This document shows, one piece after another, positions 4,342-53,502 of a stretch of DNA of 64,000 nucleotides. Location of the stretch: the IMG/VR virus record IMGVR_UViG_3300044471_000009, positions 1 to 64,000 of that record; one strand, given 5' to 3'. The translations under genes and the position numbers were made by a program. The stretch comes from a virus (lineage: Duplodnaviria; Caudoviricetes). The notes beneath the pieces were generated by a model, which searched no databases, was not told where the DNA came from, and saw only the letters and a list, made by a program, of their open reading frames with translations. The first letter of the stretch is position 1; each line of letters begins with the position of its first letter.

Positions 4342-4417
4342 TGGTGCTCCTGGAGGGATTTGAACCCCCAACCGTCCGGTTATGAGCCAGCGGCTCTGCC
4401 AGTTGAGCTACAGGAGC
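4342..4417 (-). tRNA. tRNA with CAU anticodon (elongator Met or Ile2)
   Basis: GCTCCTG/CAGGAGC acceptor, CT-CAT-AA loop, TTCAAAT T-loop, encoded CCA. Confidence 0.9.
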
Positions 4418-4418
4418 T

Positions 4419-4494
4419 TGGCGGCCCCGGAGAGAATCGAACTCCCAACCTACGCGATAGGAGCGCGATGCTCTATCCTTTGAGCTACGGGGCC
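4419..4494 (-). tRNA. tRNA-Arg(CCU)
   Basis: Canonical cloverleaf, CT-CCT-AT loop, encoded CCA. Confidence 0.9.
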
Positions 4495-4760
4495 GTGATT
4501 GACTTGTAGTGCATTGCCGGATCATATTCAGTTATCTGCGCAGGATCAACGCAATACCAATTCACAGTTTTGTGAGATTTTGACCACACAATTTCTAACT
4601 CTTCGTTATTGCGGCACTTAAACAGACCGCCCACTCTCCACATCATGCCACCGTACAACTTGGCATGATGCCGTATCCATGATTCTGCATGGCTCTTTTT
4701 GTTCCATGAGAGGCCATCAACAATAGAACCATCTTTTCTTTTCAATGAATATCGTGCCAT
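4485..4760 (-). CDS. Hypothetical protein inside the tRNA cluster
   Basis: ORF track; stop codon overlaps the 5' end of tRNA-Arg. Confidence 0.5.
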   Translation of the reverse strand: MARYSLKRKDGSIVDGLSWNKKSHAESWIRHHAKLYGGMMWRVGGLFKCRNNEELEIVWSKSHKTVNWYCVDPAQITEYDPAMHYKSITAP

Positions 4761-4817
4761 GATAATAGAAATTGCAGGCATTTCACCTGCCGGGCTGCTA
4801 TTTCAAGCCATGTTCAC

Positions 4818-4892
4818 TGGCGACCCGTGGCGGAATTGAACCGCCGTTTCTGCCTTGAAAGGGCAGCGTCTTTACCACTTGACGAACGGGCC
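4818..4892 (-). tRNA. tRNA-Glu(UUC)
   Basis: CTGCC-CTTTCAA-GGCAG anticodon arm, canonical D and T arms, CCA. Confidence 0.95.
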
Positions 4893-4896
4893 TTAA

Positions 4897-4966
4897 ATCT
4901 CTCCAGCCCGGAATTGAACCAGGTTCTTGCGCAAGGCAAACCATCGCTCTTTTGAGCTACTGGAGG
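4897..4966 (-). pseudogene. tRNA-like element (D-arm and T-arm, scrambled anticodon arm)
   Basis: CTCCAG/CTGGAG acceptor, GCTC-AAAA-GAGC D-arm, CCTGG-TTCAATT-CCGGG T-arm. Confidence 0.55.
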
Positions 4967-5181
4967 TGTTTTAAAGATACCAATCATCGGTGAGTGTAGC
5001 CGAAATTTATCTTCAAGCTTCCTCAATCCCACCATTAAAGAAGATAAAGACAACCCCCGCCTGGATTAGACCATCCGCCCGCCGCACTCGTATTAGTTTT
5101 ACTGGACGATGATTGATAAACTGCTTCAAGTAACCGGCTTTGGTGCGCAGTTCTGCGAGATGCGTTGCCGGTGTTATTCAT

Positions 5182-5264
5182 TGGCTGGCCCGGCAGGAAT
5201 CGAACCTGCGTTAGGGTGTTTGCTGATCAGTGGCCACCCCAGCCTTCCACTTGGCTACAGGCCA
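5182..5264 (-). ncRNA. tRNA-Gln-like RNA with a 16-nt anticodon loop
   Basis: TGGCCTG/CGGGCCA acceptor plus GCCA end, GCC-AAGTGGA-AGGC D-arm, GCAGG-TTCGATT-CCTGC T-arm; loop GCCACTGATCAGCAAA. Confidence 0.7.
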
Positions 5265-5272
5265 ATATTTCT

Positions 5273-5356
5273 CAAATTCGCCCCTCGGCAGGATTCCGCC
5301 TGCGCGTTTGTCGGACTGGCCGTCCGTGCCATTTGTCTCACTTGAGTTACCGCAAA
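5273..5356 (-). pseudogene. Highly degenerate tRNA-like element
   Basis: TA-ACTC-AAGT-GAG D-like arm, CGGAC/GTCCG hairpin, GCAGG-CGGAAT-CCTGC T-like arm. Confidence 0.3.
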
Positions 5357-5414
5357 GTTATTGCCTTGCGGACATATCATGCGGTATCGCAGCCGCACTC
5401 CCTTCGCGCCTGCA

Positions 5415-5525
5415 CTCGGCAAACGATCAGGAATCGAACCTGACCTACTTGGGGTGAATGACGAGACTTCAACTCGAACCTCTCAGGTTCACAGCATTGA
5501 TGCTCTACCATTGAGCTATTCCCGC
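5415..5525 (-). ncRNA. tRNA-like element with a hairpin inserted in the anticodon loop and a long variable region
   Basis: GCGGGAATAGCTCAATGGTAGAGCA 5' half; TCAAT/GTTGA stem around a 22-nt loop; TCAGG-TTCGATT-CCTGA T-arm. Confidence 0.5.
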
Positions 5526-5540
5526 AAACTCCATTGCTTT

Positions 5541-5831
5541 CTACCGAAAACCCCGCTTTCCTGTTATTTCATCAAGCATACGCTGCCGGTTTGCGTCGGC
5601 TTCGCTGCCACTGCCAGCTACAGCATTAAGCATGACAGGAATAACCAATATCAATGATTCAACAGGGAAGAGGCCATGATCAACAACCCCTTCGTCGTTG
5701 AGCCATTCACATTTGAAGTTGCCGTCTGGACGCTTCTCAATGGCCGTCACCTTCATCTCCGGGCCGCCAGATTTCAGTCTAACGGTATCGCCAACCTGAA
5801 CCGCAACCGGACCTTCTGTTTTAAAGATCAT
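5541..5831 (-). CDS. YodC/DUF2158-like small beta protein
   Basis: VGDTVRLKSGGPEMKVTAI...CEW motif. Confidence 0.8.
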   Translation of the reverse strand: MIFKTEGPVAVQVGDTVRLKSGGPEMKVTAIEKRPDGNFKCEWLNDEGVVDHGLFPVESLILVIPVMLNAVAGSGSEADANRQRMLDEITGKRGFR

Positions 5832-5868
5832 TTCCACGTTTGCTTTCCTCTTGACTTTAAACGCTAAT

Positions 5869-6072
5869 CTAAAGCGAATCAATGAAAGGCGCGACTACCA
5901 ACATGCAACACAGAAATTCACTCCCCAGGCACGTCCAGTCTTGGGTGAACCATACGTAGCTTGCGGCCTGACCTGCACTTGGAGTGAACAAGCCTTCAAT
6001 AGCCATATTCTGGCCACTGGCATTGAGCCTGACTACATCTCCAGCTTTCATCTCTGCTTCATTCAAAGCCAT
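5869..6072 (-). CDS. Second, divergent YodC/DUF2158-like protein
   Basis: MKAGDVVRLNASGQNMAI...VWF. Confidence 0.6.
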   Translation of the reverse strand: MALNEAEMKAGDVVRLNASGQNMAIEGLFTPSAGQAASYVWFTQDWTCLGSEFLCCMLVVAPFIDSL

Positions 6073-6113
6073 CGCTTTCCCTCTCGGAAAAGAGATATTT
6101 GCCAACTAAAAAA

Positions 6114-6199
6114 TGGCGGAGGAAGTAGGATTCGAACCCACGGTGCTTTCGCACAACGGTTTTCAAGACCGCCGCCTTCAACCGCTCGGCCATTCCTCC
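6114..6199 (-). tRNA. tRNA-Ser(UGA)
   Basis: Class II tRNA: GCGGT-CTTGAAA-ACCGT anticodon arm, long variable arm, CCA. Confidence 0.95.
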
Positions 6200-14364: not shown

Positions 14365-15315
14365 ATGAGTGAGAAAGACGCAGCAGTATTAGACAAAAAG
14401 GCCGAGTTTGCCAATTGGATTATTGCCAATGATGGGAAATGCTCAATTACAGAGGTTTGTTGCGATGGAGGGCATGGACATTTCAAGGGGACTCGCTGTC
14501 CTATTCGCCGAAACGAGCCTTGTTGCCTAAGTAAAAAAGATAAACTTGCATACCTAAGCAAGTGGCTCAAAAACTACCACCAACAGAAAGCCGAGGCCGC
14601 TGAAGCAGAGAAGCGGAAGGCTGAAGCTGCCAAAAAGGAGGAGCAGGAAACCAAGCAGGAGCCAGCAAGAATCTGCGGAAACTGCAAGCATATTCATGAA
14701 GTTGAGAAGTCAGGAAATATGATTGCCCACTGCGATATGAAAAAAAACATGGTGCCGATTTCATTTGACCGCTGCCCTGATTTCGAGCCAAGAGCTACTG
14801 CCGATCAATCTGGCTCCTCTTCCAGCGAAGGCGGGGTGGATGCCGCTGCTTACGCTGAACGCATCACTCAGCTTGAAAAGGAGAATGCACGGCTTGCGGA
14901 AGAGGTTAGCGGATACAGGGGGGTAACAAGGCGAATATCAGAGATTTGTGAAGTTATTGTGATTGGCATTGATCAGGCTATAAAAGAGCGGGAAGAATTG
15001 CAAAATCAGCTCAACTTGGCGAAAGAGGATGCTTTGCGGCTCGGAAAAGAGAATGTCGATCTTTCGGCCAGATGCGAACGCCTCACGGAGCAGCGTAACA
15101 GGTTGTCCAATAGCCTTATTGAGGTGACGCGCAGGGTGAAAGAGGTTGAGCGGGAGAATGCCGCGTTATATGAGCGCATTTCTGCGATGTTAAGCGACCT
15201 GCTTTACTTTCAATGGAAAGCTGAGACTGGGCAGCCAATGCCGTTTAGCGTTCTCAATGACATCGAAGAGCGTTTAAAGCGCATTCGCCAGAGCTGGGTT
15301 TCTCGACTGAAATAA
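14365..15315 (+). CDS. Cys-rich plus coiled-coil hypothetical protein
   Basis: Two Cys clusters and long heptad repeats. Confidence 0.75.
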   Translation: MSEKDAAVLDKKAEFANWIIANDGKCSITEVCCDGGHGHFKGTRCPIRRNEPCCLSKKDKLAYLSKWLKNYHQQKAEAAEAEKRKAEAAKKEEQETKQEPARICGNCKHIHEVEKSGNMIAHCDMKKNMVPISFDRCPDFEPRATADQSGSSSSEGGVDAAAYAERITQLEKENARLAEEVSGYRGVTRRISEICEVIVIGIDQAIKEREELQNQLNLAKEDALRLGKENVDLSARCERLTEQRNRLSNSLIEVTRRVKEVERENAALYERISAMLSDLLYFQWKAETGQPMPFSVLNDIEERLKRIRQSWVSRLK

Positions 15316-15347
15316 CATTCCTGTAACTTTTCAACAGGAAACGACCG

Positions 15348-15372
15348 AAGCCGCCCAGCAAGCGGCTTTTTC
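15348..15372 (+). terminator. Intrinsic terminator before the modification/packaging operon
   Basis: aagccgc/gcggctt stem plus T-run. Confidence 0.7.
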
Positions 15373-15459
15373 TATTTCGTGTGTCGCATGGCTAAAAAAA
15401 AAATACATTTCTGTGATTTTTCCCTCGACAACCGGTCGTTTTGTTGCTATTTTACAAAT

Positions 15460-15957
15460 ATGGAAATCATACACAAGAAAGTTGCCGACCTGATACCTTA
15501 CGCCGGGAATCCGCGCAAGAACGACCACGCCGTTGCGCCTGCCGCTGCGATAATCAAGCGGTTTGGGTTTCGGGTTCCGTTGCTTATCAAGAGCGATGAC
15601 GAAGTTATAGACGGTCATTTGCGCCTGAAAGCTGCCGTTAAGCTGGGCTACGATGAGGTTCCTTGCATTATCGTAGATGACATGTCGGATAATGACATCC
15701 GTGCGTTGCGAATCAGTGTGAACAAGCTCGCAGAGAAGGCTGATTGGGATGATGAACTGCTGAAACTTGAACTTGATGAGCTGGAGCTGGCGGGGATTTC
15801 TCTCGAAGAAATCGGGTTTGAGGTTGGCGAGGCAGGCGAGTTGCCCATAGAAGACGAGAAAGCCAACTCGCCGGAAGATTTCAAGGAAGTTGATGAGGGT
15901 ATTGAGACCAATCATGAATGCCCGAAATGCGGGTATCGGTGGAGCGGCGGAAAGTGA
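15460..15957 (+). CDS. ParB/Srx N-terminal domain protein with C-terminal CPKC
   Basis: LIPYAGNPRKND...IKRFGFRVPLLI...VIDGHLRLKAA. Confidence 0.9.
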   Translation: MEIIHKKVADLIPYAGNPRKNDHAVAPAAAIIKRFGFRVPLLIKSDDEVIDGHLRLKAAVKLGYDEVPCIIVDDMSDNDIRALRISVNKLAEKADWDDELLKLELDELELAGISLEEIGFEVGEAGELPIEDEKANSPEDFKEVDEGIETNHECPKCGYRWSGGK

Positions 15958-15997
15958 AGCGCAAGTGTTGCTTAGGCTGTGATTTTTTCTTGTCTAA

Positions 15998-17299
15998 ATG
16001 ATAAGGATTGTGCGAAGCGGCACCGGGTTGCAGGCTCACGGGTCAAGAACAATCCTCCAGCCTTGCCCTACGATTATGGCCGGAGGATTGGGAGGCGGAA
16101 ACTGCTCTCAATACTGGCTGGAAGATGATGGAATGCAGATGCCGATAGAAAAAAATAATAAGCCTGAATACCGCGTTCTAAGCATGGATGAAATTCGCGC
16201 TTTGCCGTGGAACGGGTTCAATGCCGTCTCGACATTCAGTGGATGCGGCGGGTCGTCGACTGGCTACAGAATGGCCGGTTTTCGCGTCCTGTGGGCATCT
16301 GAGTTTATAGATGCAGCAAGGGATTCGTATCGGGCAAACAAGGCCGACTACACCATTCTTGACGGGCGCGATATTCGGCAGGTCACCGCCTCTGAAATCC
16401 TCTCAGCTATCAAAATGCAGCCGGGAGAACTTGACTTGTTCGACGGCAGCCCGCCTTGCGCATCGTTCTCAACCGCTGGAAAACGTGAGGCCGGATGGGG
16501 CAAGGTTAAGAAATATAGTGACAAGTCCCAGCGAACCGATGATTTATTTTTTGAATACGCAAGGCTGATCAAAGGGATTCAGCCTAAAACATTCGTTGCC
16601 GAGAACGTGAGCGGCCTTGTCAAGGGGACAGCAAAGGGATACTTCCTTGAAATACTGGCCGCGCTGAAGGCTTGCGGCTATAAGGTATCGTGCCGTGTTC
16701 TTGATGCTCAGTGGCTTGGAGTGCCGCAATCAAGGCAGCGAACCATCTTTGTTGGTGTTCGTGAAGACTTAGGCGTTGACCCGGCGCACCCGAAGCCGCT
16801 GCCGTATCGCTACAGTGTGCGTGATGCATTGCCGTGGATTGTAGCTGTTGGCGACAACGGGGGATTTGGAAAAGGGGCTATGCGTTCGGCTGAATCAGCA
16901 GCGTCGGCGACAATCGGAGCAAGCCCGCAAACAGGGAACGGCAAGTTCCCGCCTTCGCTGGTCGAGGCTGTGATTTATGACATTGGAGGCTCGTTTGCGT
17001 CGGCGCAGCCTATCACGAACGCCCCGTGTCCGACTGTGTGTTGCGAAACCTCGCAATCCCATTATCTTGTTCGTGGAAAAGGAGATAAAGATACTTTTAC
17101 AGCTCATGCGCCTGACGGGGTAGAACGCCGCAAATTCACCATCGCTGAACTCAAGCGCATTTGCGGCTTCCCGGATGATTTTATCCTGACTGGAACCTAC
17201 GCTCAGCAATGGGAGCGCCTTGGCCGTGCCGTCCCTCCTGTCATGATGTCACATATTGCGGCGACTGTTAGAGATGAGATGTTGAGGATGTTGAAGTGA
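15998..17299 (+). CDS. C5-cytosine DNA methyltransferase-fold enzyme with Arg in motif X (predicted carboxymethyltransferase)
   Basis: Motif I FSGCGG, IV GSPPCASFS, VI AENVSGL, VIII PQSRQR; motif X is LGRAVPP instead of GN[AS]V. Confidence 0.9.
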   Translation: MIRIVRSGTGLQAHGSRTILQPCPTIMAGGLGGGNCSQYWLEDDGMQMPIEKNNKPEYRVLSMDEIRALPWNGFNAVSTFSGCGGSSTGYRMAGFRVLWASEFIDAARDSYRANKADYTILDGRDIRQVTASEILSAIKMQPGELDLFDGSPPCASFSTAGKREAGWGKVKKYSDKSQRTDDLFFEYARLIKGIQPKTFVAENVSGLVKGTAKGYFLEILAALKACGYKVSCRVLDAQWLGVPQSRQRTIFVGVREDLGVDPAHPKPLPYRYSVRDALPWIVAVGDNGGFGKGAMRSAESAASATIGASPQTGNGKFPPSLVEAVIYDIGGSFASAQPITNAPCPTVCCETSQSHYLVRGKGDKDTFTAHAPDGVERRKFTIAELKRICGFPDDFILTGTYAQQWERLGRAVPPVMMSHIAATVRDEMLRMLK

Positions 17300-18108
17300 C
17301 ACTGGCGACTGATTTTAGAAATGTATTCGTTCGTGCGGTAGGTCAAGATGCCAAGCATTCTCTTTTTCTTTCTGGCGGAGTTGACAGCGCAACAATCCTT
17401 GCGGCGCAGCTTCACCTTGGAAACAAACCTGATTGCTACTCCTTTAGATTCGGAGATTATCCATCTGAAGACAATCTTGTGGCAAGACAGATGGCTGCTG
17501 CGTTTGGCCTTCGATATGTCGAGGTCGCTGTTCGTCGAACAGCGGAAGCTATGATTGCTGACGCAAAGGAAGCTATCGCGCTTGGTGGGAGTTATTTAAA
17601 AACACATGTTCATGTAGGAATCCCGTTTCTTTACCTCTGCCGGGCGTTAAAGGGTGATGGTGTAGATGCAGCTCTCTTTGGAATGGCGGCTGATGATCTA
17701 TGGGGGTCAGGAAGACACGCAAGAATTGCCGCATCAAGGGGGCCTGATGAATTTCGCAAATTTAGACTGAATAAAATAACCGACACATCGCAGTCAGATT
17801 TTTCTGTCCTACGTCTTGCATCCAGTCTTGGAATTTCTCTTTATGATCCATACAGAAACAATGATGTAATAAAGCTGATGCTTAATGCTGGTTTCAATGA
17901 AATGCACAAGCCGCGTGACAAAGCACTCGCGCTTTCTGCGTTTCCTGAGTTTTGGCAGCATGGCAAATGGTATCGTCCAAATAAATCACTGCAAGTTGTG
18001 TCTGGAATCCGTGCTGCACATGATACGCTGCTGAAAGACCCTGCTATCAATACCGGCAGGCATCGCGCCATAGTAGGTCTGTACCATAAGCTGGCGAATC
18101 ATCTATGA
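17296..18108 (+). CDS. Asparagine-synthetase-like ATP-dependent amide ligase (synthetase domain only)
   Basis: PP-loop LFLSGGVDS; LFGMAADDLWG (cf. GEGADELFGG); no Ntn glutaminase domain. Confidence 0.8.
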   Translation: MTLATDFRNVFVRAVGQDAKHSLFLSGGVDSATILAAQLHLGNKPDCYSFRFGDYPSEDNLVARQMAAAFGLRYVEVAVRRTAEAMIADAKEAIALGGSYLKTHVHVGIPFLYLCRALKGDGVDAALFGMAADDLWGSGRHARIAASRGPDEFRKFRLNKITDTSQSDFSVLRLASSLGISLYDPYRNNDVIKLMLNAGFNEMHKPRDKALALSAFPEFWQHGKWYRPNKSLQVVSGIRAAHDTLLKDPAINTGRHRAIVGLYHKLANHL

Positions 18109-18782
18109 ACGAGACAACCTTTAGCATCCCTGCCGACTGGACATTCAACCGCCCGGACATAGCAGCAGGGTTTGACAAGCATGTCCGGGAGCAGCTTCCT
18201 TGGTATGATTTAGCCACAGGAGCGGTTGCGCATATAGCCAGGCACTTCCTTCCTGAAAACGGGCTGATTTACGACATAGGGGCCAGCACCGGCAATATCG
18301 GGGAAGCGTTGGGAGACAGCATTGCAAGCCGCAATGCGCGTATGGTTGCCGTGGAGAAGTCTGCCGAGATGGTTGCCTGTTATCGCGGGCCGGGTGAATG
18401 CGTCGAGGCTGATGCGTTGACCTTTGATTTTCAGCCGTGCGACGTATGTGTCTGCTTTCTGGTTTTGATGTTTATTCCTGTCTCGGAGCGGGCCGCCTTG
18501 GTGGAAAAGCTCGTGAAGTCTGTCCGGCCCGGCGGCGCACTTATTATCTTCGATAAGACTGAATATCGGGGCGGCTACCTGTCAACCGTGATGCACAGGC
18601 TGACGATAGCAGGAAAAGTGGCTACAGGATGCGACCCTTCTCAGATAATCAGGAAGGAGTTGAGCCTGTCTGGGACACAGAGGCCGCTGTCTGTCGATTT
18701 CATTGAAGGATTTGACCCGAAAATGATTGAGGTTTTTCGTTTTGGTGAATTTGCTGGGTGGATTATAGAAAAACATGCCTGA
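18105..18782 (+). CDS. cmoA: CmoA-like carboxy-SAM synthase / class I SAM-binding protein
   Basis: WTFNRPDIAAGFDKHVREQLPWYD and IYDIGASTG resemble CmoA (WTFD..VA..F..M..RS.PGY, VYDLGCS.G); FLVLMF; PGGALIIFDK. Confidence 0.8.
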   Translation: MNETTFSIPADWTFNRPDIAAGFDKHVREQLPWYDLATGAVAHIARHFLPENGLIYDIGASTGNIGEALGDSIASRNARMVAVEKSAEMVACYRGPGECVEADALTFDFQPCDVCVCFLVLMFIPVSERAALVEKLVKSVRPGGALIIFDKTEYRGGYLSTVMHRLTIAGKVATGCDPSQIIRKELSLSGTQRPLSVDFIEGFDPKMIEVFRFGEFAGWIIEKHA

Positions 18783-19125
18783 ACTCATAACGCTTACAGA
18801 CAAGCAAATAGCTCAGATTGAGGCGTTGGCGCAGTATCTAACGCTTGAGCAGATAGCAGACCATCTTGGAATTTGCCGCAAAACTCTTTTGAACAAGAGA
18901 AATGAGCATCCTGAGATTGAAGCCAGTTACAGAAAGGGGAAAGCAAGGGCTATAGCGTTTACGTCCAAGAGCTTGATGAAAAACATTGCAGCCGGGAAAG
19001 AGGCGAGCATAATCTTTTTCTTGAAGACGCAGGCCGGATGGAAAGAGAACAAGGATACTGGCGATGACGATGACGATGCTCTTGAAAGACTGACAAGCGC
19101 ACAAGATGACGCGCTCGGCAATTGA
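18775..19125 (+). CDS. terS: Terminase small subunit
   Basis: N-terminal HTH (LEQIADHLGICRKTL), ASIIFFLKTQAGW; immediately before terL. Confidence 0.85.
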   Translation: MPELITLTDKQIAQIEALAQYLTLEQIADHLGICRKTLLNKRNEHPEIEASYRKGKARAIAFTSKSLMKNIAAGKEASIIFFLKTQAGWKENKDTGDDDDDALERLTSAQDDALGN

Positions 19126-20375
19126 TAAAATTTAGCGAAAAACAGATTGCCGTCATCCGGGAGATAGAGACAGGCCACCGTATCAATGCGCTTATAGGGC
19201 CAACGAGGTCTGGGAAGAGCCATATAGTAAACCACTTGCTTCCTCGGCGAGTCAGAGAGATGGACGGCAGGGCTGGCTTGCGAATGCTGATAGCGAAGAC
19301 ACTCGGAAGCGTTGAGAGCAACATCCTCATTCCATGCAGAGAGATGTTCGGCGTGAAGCGTGTCAGCAGGATGCGGATGCAGAGCGGCCTTATGGTTGCA
19401 CAAGTCTTTGGCAGGGATTTTGTCTGCATGGGCGGCGACAACATAAGGGCCGTTGACAAGTTACGCGGAAAAGCTGTATGTTATGCGTTGGGAGATGAAG
19501 TTGTAGAGTGGCCTGAAGAGCTTTGGGAGATGTTGAAGACACGTATGCCAAAAGCGTACTGCCGGGCAGACCTTACAGGGAATCCGCGAGGGCCACAGCA
19601 CTTTTTCAAAAAGTTCCTTGATAGGGCTAAAAACGAAGGGCTTGATGTCTATGCGCCTTCTTTCAGTATTGATGATAACCCTACGCTGACTGAAGATGAG
19701 AAAGAGCATCTTCGCAGGTCTTTAACAGGCCTGTGGTACAAGAGGCTAATACTTGGGCTTTGGGTGGCAGCAGAGGGCGCAGTCTATGACATGCTTGATG
19801 AGAATCACCATCATGTCCGCGGCCCGGCACCACGCTTCAGGAACTACTGCCTTGGCGTTGACTTTGGCCTGACACATCCTACAGCGGCTTGTCTGCTCGG
19901 ATGGGACAGGCCAACCGAGGTTTTTCAAGTAAGCGAGTGGGGATACAGCCGAAGGGAAGGTGAAGAAACGTGGACGGTGCAGCGGATTGAGCAGGGCATT
20001 TCCGGCTGGTTAAGTTCTCTTGGAATCACAGGAGAGATAGACACTTACCTTGACCCTTCAGCAGCAGCGTTTAAGGCTCAATTGCGGGCTGCTCAGGGCA
20101 AGATAAGCTACAGGCTTCTTGCGACTGATAACAGCCAAGCAGACGGCCTTCCGTTCATGCAAACGGCATTCACTGACAGACGGCTCAAGCTGTACATTGA
20201 TCATTGCAAGCGGACGTGGGAGCAGCTTTGCGGGCTGGCATGGGATGGCAAGGCGACTGAAAGAGGAAAAGATGCGGTTGTCAAGAATGATGACGACTGG
20301 CCTGATGCGCTGAGATATGCGTTTTACAGCAGATTTGGAAAGAAAATGGCCCGTGCAATGGATTTGAACTTATGA
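19122..20375 (+). CDS. terL: Terminase large subunit (PBSX-like)
   Basis: Walker A GPTRSGKS, Walker B ALGDEV, TGNP motif, nuclease GVDFG and DDWPDALRY. Confidence 0.95.
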   Translation: MIKFSEKQIAVIREIETGHRINALIGPTRSGKSHIVNHLLPRRVREMDGRAGLRMLIAKTLGSVESNILIPCREMFGVKRVSRMRMQSGLMVAQVFGRDFVCMGGDNIRAVDKLRGKAVCYALGDEVVEWPEELWEMLKTRMPKAYCRADLTGNPRGPQHFFKKFLDRAKNEGLDVYAPSFSIDDNPTLTEDEKEHLRRSLTGLWYKRLILGLWVAAEGAVYDMLDENHHHVRGPAPRFRNYCLGVDFGLTHPTAACLLGWDRPTEVFQVSEWGYSRREGEETWTVQRIEQGISGWLSSLGITGEIDTYLDPSAAAFKAQLRAAQGKISYRLLATDNSQADGLPFMQTAFTDRRLKLYIDHCKRTWEQLCGLAWDGKATERGKDAVVKNDDDWPDALRYAFYSRFGKKMARAMDLNL

Positions 20376-21793
20376 GCGAAGTCAACAGCAGCATCAAGTT
20401 TGCATCACCTGAAAGAGACGCTTGGCTTTCCAGCACACTTCTCTCAAGGTCTCTGTTTGCTGGCAGCGAGGCGATGCGGTCGCAGGGGACGTTGTTTCTG
20501 CCGCAAGGAGCTTCCGAATCTGATGCTGAATACAAACAGCGAAAGGATGACAGTTTTCTTATCCCGGCCTATAAAAAGGTTGTTCAACTCTTGGCTGGGC
20601 AGGCGTTCAAAACAGACGTTATTGTTGACGCTGACGGGGTGTTTAAAGAGATAGCAAAGCAGCCGTCAACAAATGACGATAGCCTTACAAATTTTTGCAA
20701 GAAGAGTTTCGAGAGAGACCTTGTTGATGGTTGCAATCATATTCTTGTTGATGCGCCAACCCCATCCGAAGAAGACCCTCCTGAAGGTCGCCGCCCCTTC
20801 TTTAGGTCTATATCTCCAGAATCAATATCTGCGGCAGTTTATGATCAAGGAAAACTTGTATGCCTTAAAATTGATGAGAAATTTGAAGAGAAAGAAGGAA
20901 GGTTTTCAAGCAAGCAGCTCAATCAATGGAGAGTCTTTGAGCTGGAATACATGGAAAGCGTCGCTGAAGACGGAACAATAACATACAGCTATGGGCAATG
21001 CAATTGGGAAGTTTGGAGGGAGAGCGGAAGCACTGAGAAACTTTTTGATTCGGGTTATCTTGACATTGATTATATTCCGATAGCATTGTTCAGCGGAGCA
21101 GTTTACGGCGAGCCTCTGCTTTCAGACCTTGCCGACCTGTGCGAATCTCACTGGCAAAGCAACTCAAAGCAGACATATATTATGTCTGCGGCAAGAACTC
21201 CTATTCTCTTCACGAAAAACTTGGAGTTTGAAAAGGAAGTTGATGCCGACGGGAACGAGAAGCCTACCTTCAGGGCATCTTCGAGAAGGTTCCTGATCGG
21301 CGGAGAAGGTTCCGATGCAAAATGGGTAGAAATACAGGGCGGCTCTATAGACGCAGGGTTTAAGCATCTTGAGAAGATCGAGAATGCTATGGAATCATAC
21401 GGCGTAAACCTTTTCTACCGCCCAGAGCAGACAGCCACAGCAAAAGGGATAGATTCAGCAGCATCATACTCCACGCTCGAATCGTGGGCGTTGATCAAGC
21501 AGACTCAGATACAGACTGCGTTTGAGATTGCTGGTGACTTGCTTGGAGTGCCATTCCCGGAAGACGCAGTGCATGTGCAGCGTGAATACCTCGGATGGGC
21601 GCAATCCGCTGAGGTTAGAGCAATGCTGGCAATGCTACTGTCTGGCAACGCAATATCGCCAGAAACAGCATTTAATGCAGCAAAAAGATATGTCCAGCCT
21701 ATCGAGAACGAAGACTGGAAAGATGAAAGCAAAAGGATAGAGAAGCAACAACTAAGTAAAACTTCGGAGGAAGTTGATGAGCAATCTAATTGA
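20372..21793 (+). CDS. Portal protein (DUF4055-like)
   Basis: Follows terL; FLPQ..ESD.EY..R motif; 473 aa. Confidence 0.85.
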   Translation: MSEVNSSIKFASPERDAWLSSTLLSRSLFAGSEAMRSQGTLFLPQGASESDAEYKQRKDDSFLIPAYKKVVQLLAGQAFKTDVIVDADGVFKEIAKQPSTNDDSLTNFCKKSFERDLVDGCNHILVDAPTPSEEDPPEGRRPFFRSISPESISAAVYDQGKLVCLKIDEKFEEKEGRFSSKQLNQWRVFELEYMESVAEDGTITYSYGQCNWEVWRESGSTEKLFDSGYLDIDYIPIALFSGAVYGEPLLSDLADLCESHWQSNSKQTYIMSAARTPILFTKNLEFEKEVDADGNEKPTFRASSRRFLIGGEGSDAKWVEIQGGSIDAGFKHLEKIENAMESYGVNLFYRPEQTATAKGIDSAASYSTLESWALIKQTQIQTAFEIAGDLLGVPFPEDAVHVQREYLGWAQSAEVRAMLAMLLSGNAISPETAFNAAKRYVQPIENEDWKDESKRIEKQQLSKTSEEVDEQSN

Positions 21794-52416: not shown

Positions 52417-53502
52417 TCATTCATTTCCAAACACCTCCGGCCACCGCTTTGCAAACTCTTCCCGCAGCGGAATCATCACTTCGCGCATGGATGGCTCTGC
52501 CGCCTTTGAGCAGCGCAGCTTGAAGATGTGTCGCCACTGCTCTAAATTGGCGTAAATAATGAGTTCCGTCTTGCAAGAATTGGGCAGCACGGTACGGGCT
52601 TCCTGTGGGCTTGCGCCGTAACCTATCATTGTCAGGTACGCTTTCTCAGTCGACCTGCACTGGTTATACCATGCCCAATACCTCTCTGTATATGTATCTT
52701 CTTGATTCAAATGCCTCCACTGCGGACAATCTTTGGCAAAATTGTACTCTTCTTTCTTAGTGTCGCAGGGCCTTTCGACGCATAGGTTACATGGCTGCGA
52801 GGATTCAGGAAGAAACGCACTCGGCCTAATAAAAGTTACTTCATTGCCGAATTTCCCAGAGGCATAATTGCAGTAACGTTGTGAGGTTTGCAATATAGCC
52901 ATAGCTCTGTGGCGACAAATCTCGTGGCTTATTGCGCGATTTACAATGAACTTGACCGCGATGTGGCGGTGCTTGGCCAGCAAGTCCGCAGGCAGCCGCT
53001 CCACCTCTTCCAGAGGCACTTTGCGGACAGTTATGCTGGACATGATCAATTTGCATTCCAGCGTGATGTCATCAAAGAAATACGGGTGTTGCTTGCGGAG
53101 CAGTGCGCAGGCAGCCAAAACTACGCCGCACTGCTCCGGGTCACCGATTAACATCTCTCGCCATGCCCGGATGCTGCCAGTAATCAGCATCCGAACCCTG
53201 TCCGCGCCAGACGACCTATCTTCATTTGGCGTAACTTTAGAAAGCTGAAGATATTTAGGAATCGTTTCGAGAAAATCGAAATAATCCCAAGAGTCACAAT
53301 TGACCTCCAGTGTCACAACGCCCATTTCTAAAACCGAATTGTGGCCGCTTTTAATCGCCTTCTCGACAAACGGCAAGGCCGACTCCGGCGTGATGCGGTC
53401 TTCGCTCTTGTAGCAGATGCGCCCGCAATGCTCGATGCGAACGGGAAGGCTCTGCTGGTCGAGATGGTCAAGAATTTCAAAGGATGCAGGAACTATCTTC
53501 AT
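52417..53502 (-). CDS. thyX: FAD-dependent thymidylate synthase
   Basis: EHCGRICYKSE, GHNSVLE, RHR-x7-S (RHRAMAILQTSQRY), EARTVLPN. Confidence 0.95.
   Translation of the reverse strand: MKIVPASFEILDHLDQQSLPVRIEHCGRICYKSEDRITPESALPFVEKAIKSGHNSVLEMGVVTLEVNCDSWDYFDFLETIPKYLQLSKVTPNEDRSSGADRVRMLITGSIRAWREMLIGDPEQCGVVLAACALLRKQHPYFFDDITLECKLIMSSITVRKVPLEEVERLPADLLAKHRHIAVKFIVNRAISHEICRHRAMAILQTSQRYCNYASGKFGNEVTFIRPSAFLPESSQPCNLCVERPCDTKKEEYNFAKDCPQWRHLNQEDTYTERYWAWYNQCRSTEKAYLTMIGYGASPQEARTVLPNSCKTELIIYANLEQWRHIFKLRCSKAAEPSMREVMIPLREEFAKRWPEVFGNE

Follow-up and report, generated by a model that had tools for sequence, protein, structure and literature searches.

The window analysed here is a 64,000-nucleotide (nt) stretch of viral DNA (Caudoviricetes; positions 1 to 64,000 of the IMG/VR record IMGVR_UViG_3300044471_000009) that carries a gene for a DNA cytosine C5-transferase in which an arginine, Arg410, occupies the position of the canonical asparagine of motif X. 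The record stems from an uncultivated virus, is 90 kb long and is estimated to be 78% complete. The content of the window is that of a phage throughout, with five tRNA genes, DnaB, a UvrD-like helicase, ThyX and tail genes, and megablast searches with the DNA of the locus against isolated phages and Escherichia coli genomes gave no match. The transferase gene and its neighbours, which we compare with the CmoX family of phage enzymes (Yang et al., Nat Commun 2025; PMC12783734) and its member SpCmoX, are arranged as follows.

15379–15957, + strand: the cluster's ParBc partner, ParB-N-like and bearing a CxxC element at its C-terminal side; start codon uncertain
15998–17299, + strand: putative CmoX-type DNA cytosine C5-carboxymethyltransferase, 433 amino acids; start at 15998 or at the internal ATGs 16130/16136
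16448–16459, + strand: motif IV SPPC of the transferase (S151–C154, catalytic Cys154), aligned to S95–C98 of SpCmoX
16601–16609, + strand: motif VI ENV (E202–V204, with Glu202), invariant in alignments
16843–17128, + strand: target-recognition cassette, about residues 282–377, exchanged relative to a near-identical phage (L128)
17219–17239, + strand: motif X LGRAVPP (L408 G409 R410 A411 V412 P413 P414), read from ctt ggc cgt gcc gtc cct cct
17296–18108, + strand: CmoY-like ATP-dependent amide ligase (predicted), 270 amino acids, with an asparagine-synthetase PP-loop domain and no glutaminase domain
18105–18782, + strand: CmoA-like candidate carboxy-S-adenosylmethionine synthase, 225 amino acids, with CmoA as its best NCBIfam and PDB matches
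18775–21793, + strand: packaging genes joined to the modification genes (Pfam HTH_17, Terminase_6N, DUF4055)
18775–19125, + strand: helix-turn-helix/small-terminase-like gene of the packaging block
19122–20375, + strand: large terminase gene of the packaging block
20372–21793, + strand: portal gene of the packaging block

CmoX of Synechococcus phage S-B43 (SpCmoX) makes 5-carboxymethylcytosine from carboxy-S-adenosylmethionine (Cx-SAM), which is itself made from S-adenosylmethionine (SAM) and prephenate by a phage CmoA; the wild-type enzyme uses Cx-SAM and not SAM, and in its crystal structure (8YF3) Arg350 replaces Asn304 of M.HhaI and directly contacts the carboxymethyl group of the cofactor. 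An adjacent asparagine-synthetase homologue, CmoY, joins glycine to the new carboxylate. The same work mined 5,615 sequences with SPPC and the Arg from IMG/VR and other sets, many of them adjoining genes for CmoA, the ligase and ParBc, the last of which has an unknown role in these clusters (PMC12783734). Because these results were published in December 2025, the use of Cx-SAM that a sequence-only reading had proposed for the window enzyme is no longer a new idea.

The window enzyme matches PF00145 (C-5 DNA methylase) at E = 3.5e-52 over residues 74–423. The sequence-only reading had placed Arg410 (codon CGT, 17225–17227) at the conserved asparagine of motif X and held the catalytic PC and ENV motifs to be intact, and both statements proved correct. 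In phmmer alignments, Arg410 falls on the Asn of GNAV in M.HaeIII and on Arg350 of 8YF3, the latter within an ungapped block (query 376–430, chain 316–370), so that the enzyme has GRAV at the site of the canonical GN(A/S)V. SPPC (Cys154) and ENV (Glu202) are preserved, as are motif I (FSGCGG, with F80) and motif VIII (QSRQR, with R246). In a phmmer search of the PDB, 8YF3 is the top match at E = 4.2e-64, with M.HaeIII far behind at E = 8e-24, and the residues through which SpCmoX contacts Cx-SAM (F25, E47, F48, D69, C98 and R350) correspond in the alignment to F80, E102, F103, D125, C154 and R410. Arg410 is no chance variant, being invariant across 52 aligned relatives and present in 93 of the 102 viral contigs described below. 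In an AlphaFold model made from the alignment of the 52 relatives, the predicted local distance difference test (pLDDT) score exceeds 90 throughout the catalytic core, and the model again finds its closest fold in 8YF3. With the PF00145 fold, SPPC, Arg at the R350 site, the remaining cofactor contacts and a CmoA homologue nearby, the window enzyme is, judged by its sequence, a new member of the published CmoX family in a complete CmoA/CmoX/CmoY/ParB cluster, and it very probably carboxymethylates cytosine with Cx-SAM. The proposed pairing of the arginine with the carboxylate of Cx-SAM gains support by analogy from the contact that Arg350 makes in SpCmoX.

To survey the residue among viruses, the best 80 of 541 IMG/VR relatives were kept and combined with relatives of two non-Arg variants, giving 102 distinct contigs, in each of which motif X was scored and cmoA-like genes were sought within 6 kb. 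Arg was present in 93 contigs, 90 of which have a cmoA-like gene; the three that do not are fragments estimated to be 17–35% complete. The other nine have Asn (seven contigs), Leu (one) or Cys (one), and none of the nine has cmoA within 6 kb (raw association between Arg and cmoA, Fisher P = 1e-10). One Asn variant comes from a complete 70-kb genome with terminal repeats, in which no CmoA family match was found anywhere, and one Leu variant has the order ParB–transferase–terminase, with the cmoA slot missing. The sequence-only reading had named, as grounds for giving up the idea, GRAV enzymes that commonly have no cmoA neighbours and methylate normally; the 90 of 93 Arg contigs that do have the gene point the other way. 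In a sample reached through the ligase, all ten neighbouring transferases have SPPC and GR(A/S/M)VPP.

The non-Arg members of the CmoX clade (L057:976–2004, L083:266–1198, L064:5719–7437, L107, L112 and L117) have all lost cmoA; they are natural variants of the family that lost both the Arg and its neighbour. In the Leu and Cys variants, and in some of those with Asn, the Glu that stands four residues upstream is replaced as well, so that ERxGR becomes ARLGL, ARLGC, ARCGN or GMLGN. A 710-residue Arg-type CmoX-like gene with an intein-like insert right after the SPPC cysteine is found in Erwinia phage pEa_SNUABM_2 (L086:4983–7112), and about 30 jumbo phages of Erwinia and Dickeya have a similar gene; in Erwinia jumbo phages the Arg enzyme coexists with a cmoA homologue 16 kb distant.

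Beside cmoA in the Staphylococcus phages SPbeta-like (L087:6690–7688) and vB-SscS-F1 (L088:7497–8504) we found Gly-type C5 transferases, with VVGGVI at motif X and GSPC in place of SPPC; in vB-SscS-F1 an asparagine-synthase-like gene lies between cmoA and the transferase. Because these enzymes have Gly, Arg is not the sole residue in cmoA-linked transferases. The claim that a single residue is diagnostic therefore stands in part: Arg is a good positive marker and is not a necessary one, and searches that require it would miss cmoA-linked C5 transferases with Gly. Gordonia phage Evaa (L089:702–3952) has a cmoA-like gene close to that of a methyltransferase which is fused to ParB, lacks a C5 PC motif and could be a candidate non-C5 carboxymethyltransferase.

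The CmoA-like neighbour that the sequence-only reading had pointed out is present two genes downstream of the transferase, at 18105–18782. Its best NCBIfam family is CmoA (TIGR00740, E = 7e-17) and its best PDB match is E. coli CmoA (4GEK, E = 1.3e-14); its homology to SpCmoA, which has been assayed, is evident at 22% identity (E = 9e-15), and it is 46% identical to the homologue in Moraxella phage Mcat8. A search of the 90-kb record for CmoB found none. In related clusters, genes for 3-deoxy-D-arabino-heptulosonate 7-phosphate (DAHP) synthase (L134:6793–7497) and chorismate mutase (L131:5484–5720) adjoin the cmoA-like genes, an arrangement consistent with phages raising the supply of prephenate from which Cx-SAM is made.

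Stop/start overlaps of 4 or 8 nt link the open reading frames (ORFs) from the transferase to the portal gene (17296 through 20372), a chain suggesting that the DNA to be packaged is modified late, after it has been replicated. Upstream, the product of 15379–15957 matches Pfam ParB_N at E = 5e-4, under the gathering score, and has a DGHLRLKAA box; a ParB-like ORF lies directly 5′ of the transferase in most of 80 related loci. Streptomyces phage TurkishDelight also has the order ParB–CmoX–ligase–CmoA, Pseudomonas phage PaBG has genes of these four types in a cluster, and Moraxella phage Mcat8 has CmoX and CmoA followed by terminase genes.

Comparison with a near-identical phage revealed how the transferase has recently changed. 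In L128, a 68-kb Joint Genome Institute (JGI) contig, the transferase is identical to the window enzyme over residues 1–281 bar two substitutions and near-identical from residue 376 to the end, whereas residues 282–375 are unrelated between the two (L128:3404–3833), and the L128 protein exceeds that of the window by 48 residues. The DNA of the two phages is 93.6% identical over 15310–16842 and 91.8% identical over 17129–19078, with no similarity between. The window cassette is 38–45% identical over about 80 residues to the recognition domains of three other family members (L013, L008 and L022). A frameshifted version of the L128 domain was considered and rejected, because the DNA is unrelated across 16843–17128 between flanks that are 92–94% identical. 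The difference between the two phages is a recent cassette swap, and they probably modify different sequence motifs; a pair that differs only in its cassette offers a ready-made experiment of nature on how carboxymethyltransferases choose their targets.

Ahead of the catalytic domain, the putative N-terminal extension (15998–16129) contains PCPTIMAGG...YWLE followed by YRVLSMDEIRALPWNGF, and is reminiscent of the TL-type loop in the recognition domains of C5 methylases; motifs like PCPTIMAGG/YWLE also stand upstream of motif I in several relatives. The start at 15998 has no clear ribosome-binding site, and AlphaFold predicts no structure for the extension. The notion that the extension duplicates the end of the recognition domain and motif IX was not supported, as BLASTP returned a match of five residues (E = 0.056).

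The ligase matches Pfam Asn_synthase (E = 8.5e-16), has LSGGVDS at residues 25–31 and lacks a glutaminase domain; its identity to SpCmoY is 28% (E = 9e-24), and a search of the PDB with its sequence gave no match. At other CmoX loci, the short ligases show 31–36% identity to SpCmoY and have KT.FEC..P, N.P..K and H.NLQLGDS.I as common motifs, whereas the window ligase is 21–29% identical to these SpCmoY-type proteins and does not have their motifs. Searching a large protein collection defined its own subfamily of 44 proteins with 23–90% identity, all of which, except the weakest (P0049, of SpCmoY type), share the signature KTHVQC..PFLYL ... HKP.QK ... FPEFW..G.WYR.N.SLQVVSGIR..HDTLL; the window ligase has HV where its own clade has QC. 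On the tree, the SpCmoY-type and window-type clades stand apart with 100% support on each side in the Shimodaira–Hasegawa-like approximate likelihood-ratio test (SH-aLRT), which places the window ligase outside the SpCmoY clade. A ligase-only pattern search of viral contigs gave no match, and a metagenome scan with the ligase alignment, relying on the generic PP-loop pattern alone, yielded no new contexts.

About 20 distinct contexts of window-type ligases were available, and in nearly all of them a C5 transferase and a CmoA-like gene adjoin the ligase. In one of the related clusters (L134), a DegT-family aminotransferase directly follows the ligase. Three contexts have polyamine genes inside the modification cluster, as follows.

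L125:5867–6202 (L125/L126), inside the modification cluster: S-adenosylmethionine decarboxylase
L132:3333–4031, inside the modification cluster: spermidine-synthase-like gene
L145:6852–8352, inside the modification cluster: decarboxylase–spermidine synthase fusion and a second decarboxylase

The three ligases linked to these genes are dispersed, with at least two origins, over a subclade (97% support) to which the window ligase also belongs. No S-adenosylmethionine decarboxylase or spermidine synthase family was found in 37 other CmoX records; the contrast, roughly 3 of 20 against 0 of 38, has a one-sided P of about 0.04, a post hoc value uncorrected for relatedness. Polyamines are not mentioned in the description of the family (PMC12783734). 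We tentatively suggest, as a possibility that we hold to be doubtful, that ligases of the window-type clade attach a polyamine or a polyamine-derived amine (putrescine, spermidine or an aminopropyl amine) to 5-carboxymethylcytosine in place of glycine. The window holds no polyamine genes, so here the amine would have to come from the pool of the host. If the suggestion is true, the anionic carboxymethyl handle on cytosine would be converted to a cationic side chain, and the resulting DNA base would be one that has so far not been described.

Taken together, the genes would form a three-step pathway. Judging by homology, the phage CmoA-like enzyme (18105–18782) would convert SAM and prephenate to Cx-SAM. 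The CmoX-type transferase would then flip out its target cytosine, Cys154 would attack C6 and the carboxymethyl group of Cx-SAM would be transferred to C5, with a salt bridge from Arg410 to the extra carboxylate of the cofactor selecting Cx-SAM over SAM, a role we infer from residue-for-residue conservation with SpCmoX, where it was demonstrated. By the chemistry of SpCmoY, the ligase (17296–18108) would finally adenylate the carboxylate of 5-carboxymethylcytosine and join an amine to it, giving an amide-hypermodified cytosine. The modification would be made late, after replication, on DNA about to be packaged, presumably protecting it from host restriction, and its target sequence would be set by the exchangeable recognition cassette.

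Away from the cluster, the five tRNA genes, Met(CAT), Arg(CCT), Glu(TTC), Ser(ACT) and Ser(TGA), lie at 4342–6199 on the − strand, and the ThyX-type thymidylate synthase gene (52417–53502, − strand) belongs to a leftward replication arm together with DnaB, the UvrD-like helicase and a metallophosphatase.

Several observations weigh against this account of the locus. The tracking of Arg with cmoA, which had been proposed as a check, is strong in the raw counts (90 of 93 Arg contigs against 0 of 9 others), but on the tree the non-Arg variants need three changes, just one of them on well-supported branches, so the association rests on few independent events, and one to three independent contrasts are below what a sign test needs for significance. 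The CmoA-like protein scores 61.9 bits against a TIGR00740 cutoff of 193.3, and phage homologues likewise fall under that cutoff, the one in PaBG reaching 125 bits. AlphaFold confidence is low in the recognition domain (residues 310–373, pLDDT below 50) and in the N-terminal 45 residues. The ligase stands outside the clade of the only assayed ligase, which bears on the identity of the final base, and the phage is known solely as an IMG/VR contig.

Three other explanations of the cluster have to be weighed against a working carboxymethyltransferase. The transferase might have been crippled by a poorly structured replacement cassette, leaving the cluster a decaying relic, as the low-confidence stretch at residues 310–373 could indicate; the canonical PSPTITA..GG block ahead of motif IX is also degenerate in the window enzyme, and the near-identical L128 has a cassette of the consensus type. 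We consider this improbable, given that the reading frame is open and the swap clean, with no frameshift, that the cassette resembles the recognition domains of other family members at the identities given above and keeps the PCPT motif, and that the catalytic and cofactor residues are all intact. Bacterial CmoA feeds CmoB, and the CmoA-like gene of a phage with five tRNA genes, one of them tRNA-Ser(UGA), might mainly boost uridine 5-oxyacetic acid (cmo5U) in host tRNA, for example in the phage tRNA-Ser(UGA) at 6114–6199, and lie next to a DNA transferase incidentally. The absence of CmoB from the record, the overlap of the cmoA-like gene with the ligase and transferase genes and the tight linkage of cmoA to Arg-type transferases across many unrelated phages make such a coincidence hardly credible at all.

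The intact methyl-transfer motifs and the sub-cutoff score of the CmoA-like protein would also suit an ordinary 5-methylcytosine methyltransferase that tolerates the change from Asn to Arg, beside a class I methyltransferase-like protein that is not a Cx-SAM synthase. An enzyme of this kind is very unlikely: wild-type SpCmoX, with the same Arg, does not use SAM (PMC12783734), the Arg goes with cmoA in 90 of 93 contigs while cmoA is gone wherever the Arg is replaced in the contigs surveyed, and the asparagine-synthetase-like ligase would have no substrate on 5-methylcytosine. Carboxymethylation of cytosine with Cx-SAM is the explanation that we prefer to all three.

The Arg residue itself adds nothing new for the field. 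What it illustrates is that one codon in raw sequence can correctly predict a change of cofactor, and hence a non-canonical DNA base, through a mechanism since proven by crystallography. Beyond the published work (PMC12783734), the locus contributes a separate ligase clade with gene-context hints at polyamines and a cassette swap in a near-identical relative.

Among known systems, the closest is SpCmoX, with which the window enzyme shares 41% overall identity, the C5-methyltransferase fold, SPPC, ENV, QxRxR, Arg at the motif X Asn position and all the named Cx-SAM contacts, and both adjoin CmoA-like and asparagine-synthetase-like ligase genes. The two differ in their recognition domains, so the target of the window enzyme need not be GC. 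They differ also in the N-terminal extension of 50–70 residues and the ParB-like gene upstream, in the clade of the partner ligase and in the setting of the cluster, which in the window lies beside packaging genes rather than replication genes and in a genome that is not that of a cyanophage. M.MpeI N374K (Wang and Kohli 2021, cited in PMC12783734), which we compare through its description there, likewise has a basic residue at the motif X Asn position, uses Cx-SAM and yields 5-carboxymethylcytosine, but it was engineered from a CpG methylase and has Lys at the site, whereas the window enzyme is natural and has Arg. M.HaeIII, M.HhaI, Dcm and DNMT1, the next-best PDB matches, share the fold and the catalytic cysteine mechanism but are SAM-dependent, and their motif X reads GN(A/S)V, in contrast to GRAV in the window enzyme. 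The ligase resembles SpCmoY in its length of about 270 residues, its PP-loop SGGxDS asparagine-synthetase domain, the lack of a glutaminase domain and its position next to CmoX and CmoA; in the window type, KT.FEC..P and H.NLQLGDS.I are replaced by KTHVQC..PFLYL and FPEFW..G.WYR.N.SLQVVSGIR. The CmoA-like protein, finally, has the class I methyltransferase fold of E. coli CmoA (4GEK) and SpCmoA and finds its best family and PDB matches in CmoA, from which it differs in that identity is only about 22–25% and that it stands in a record without a CmoB partner.

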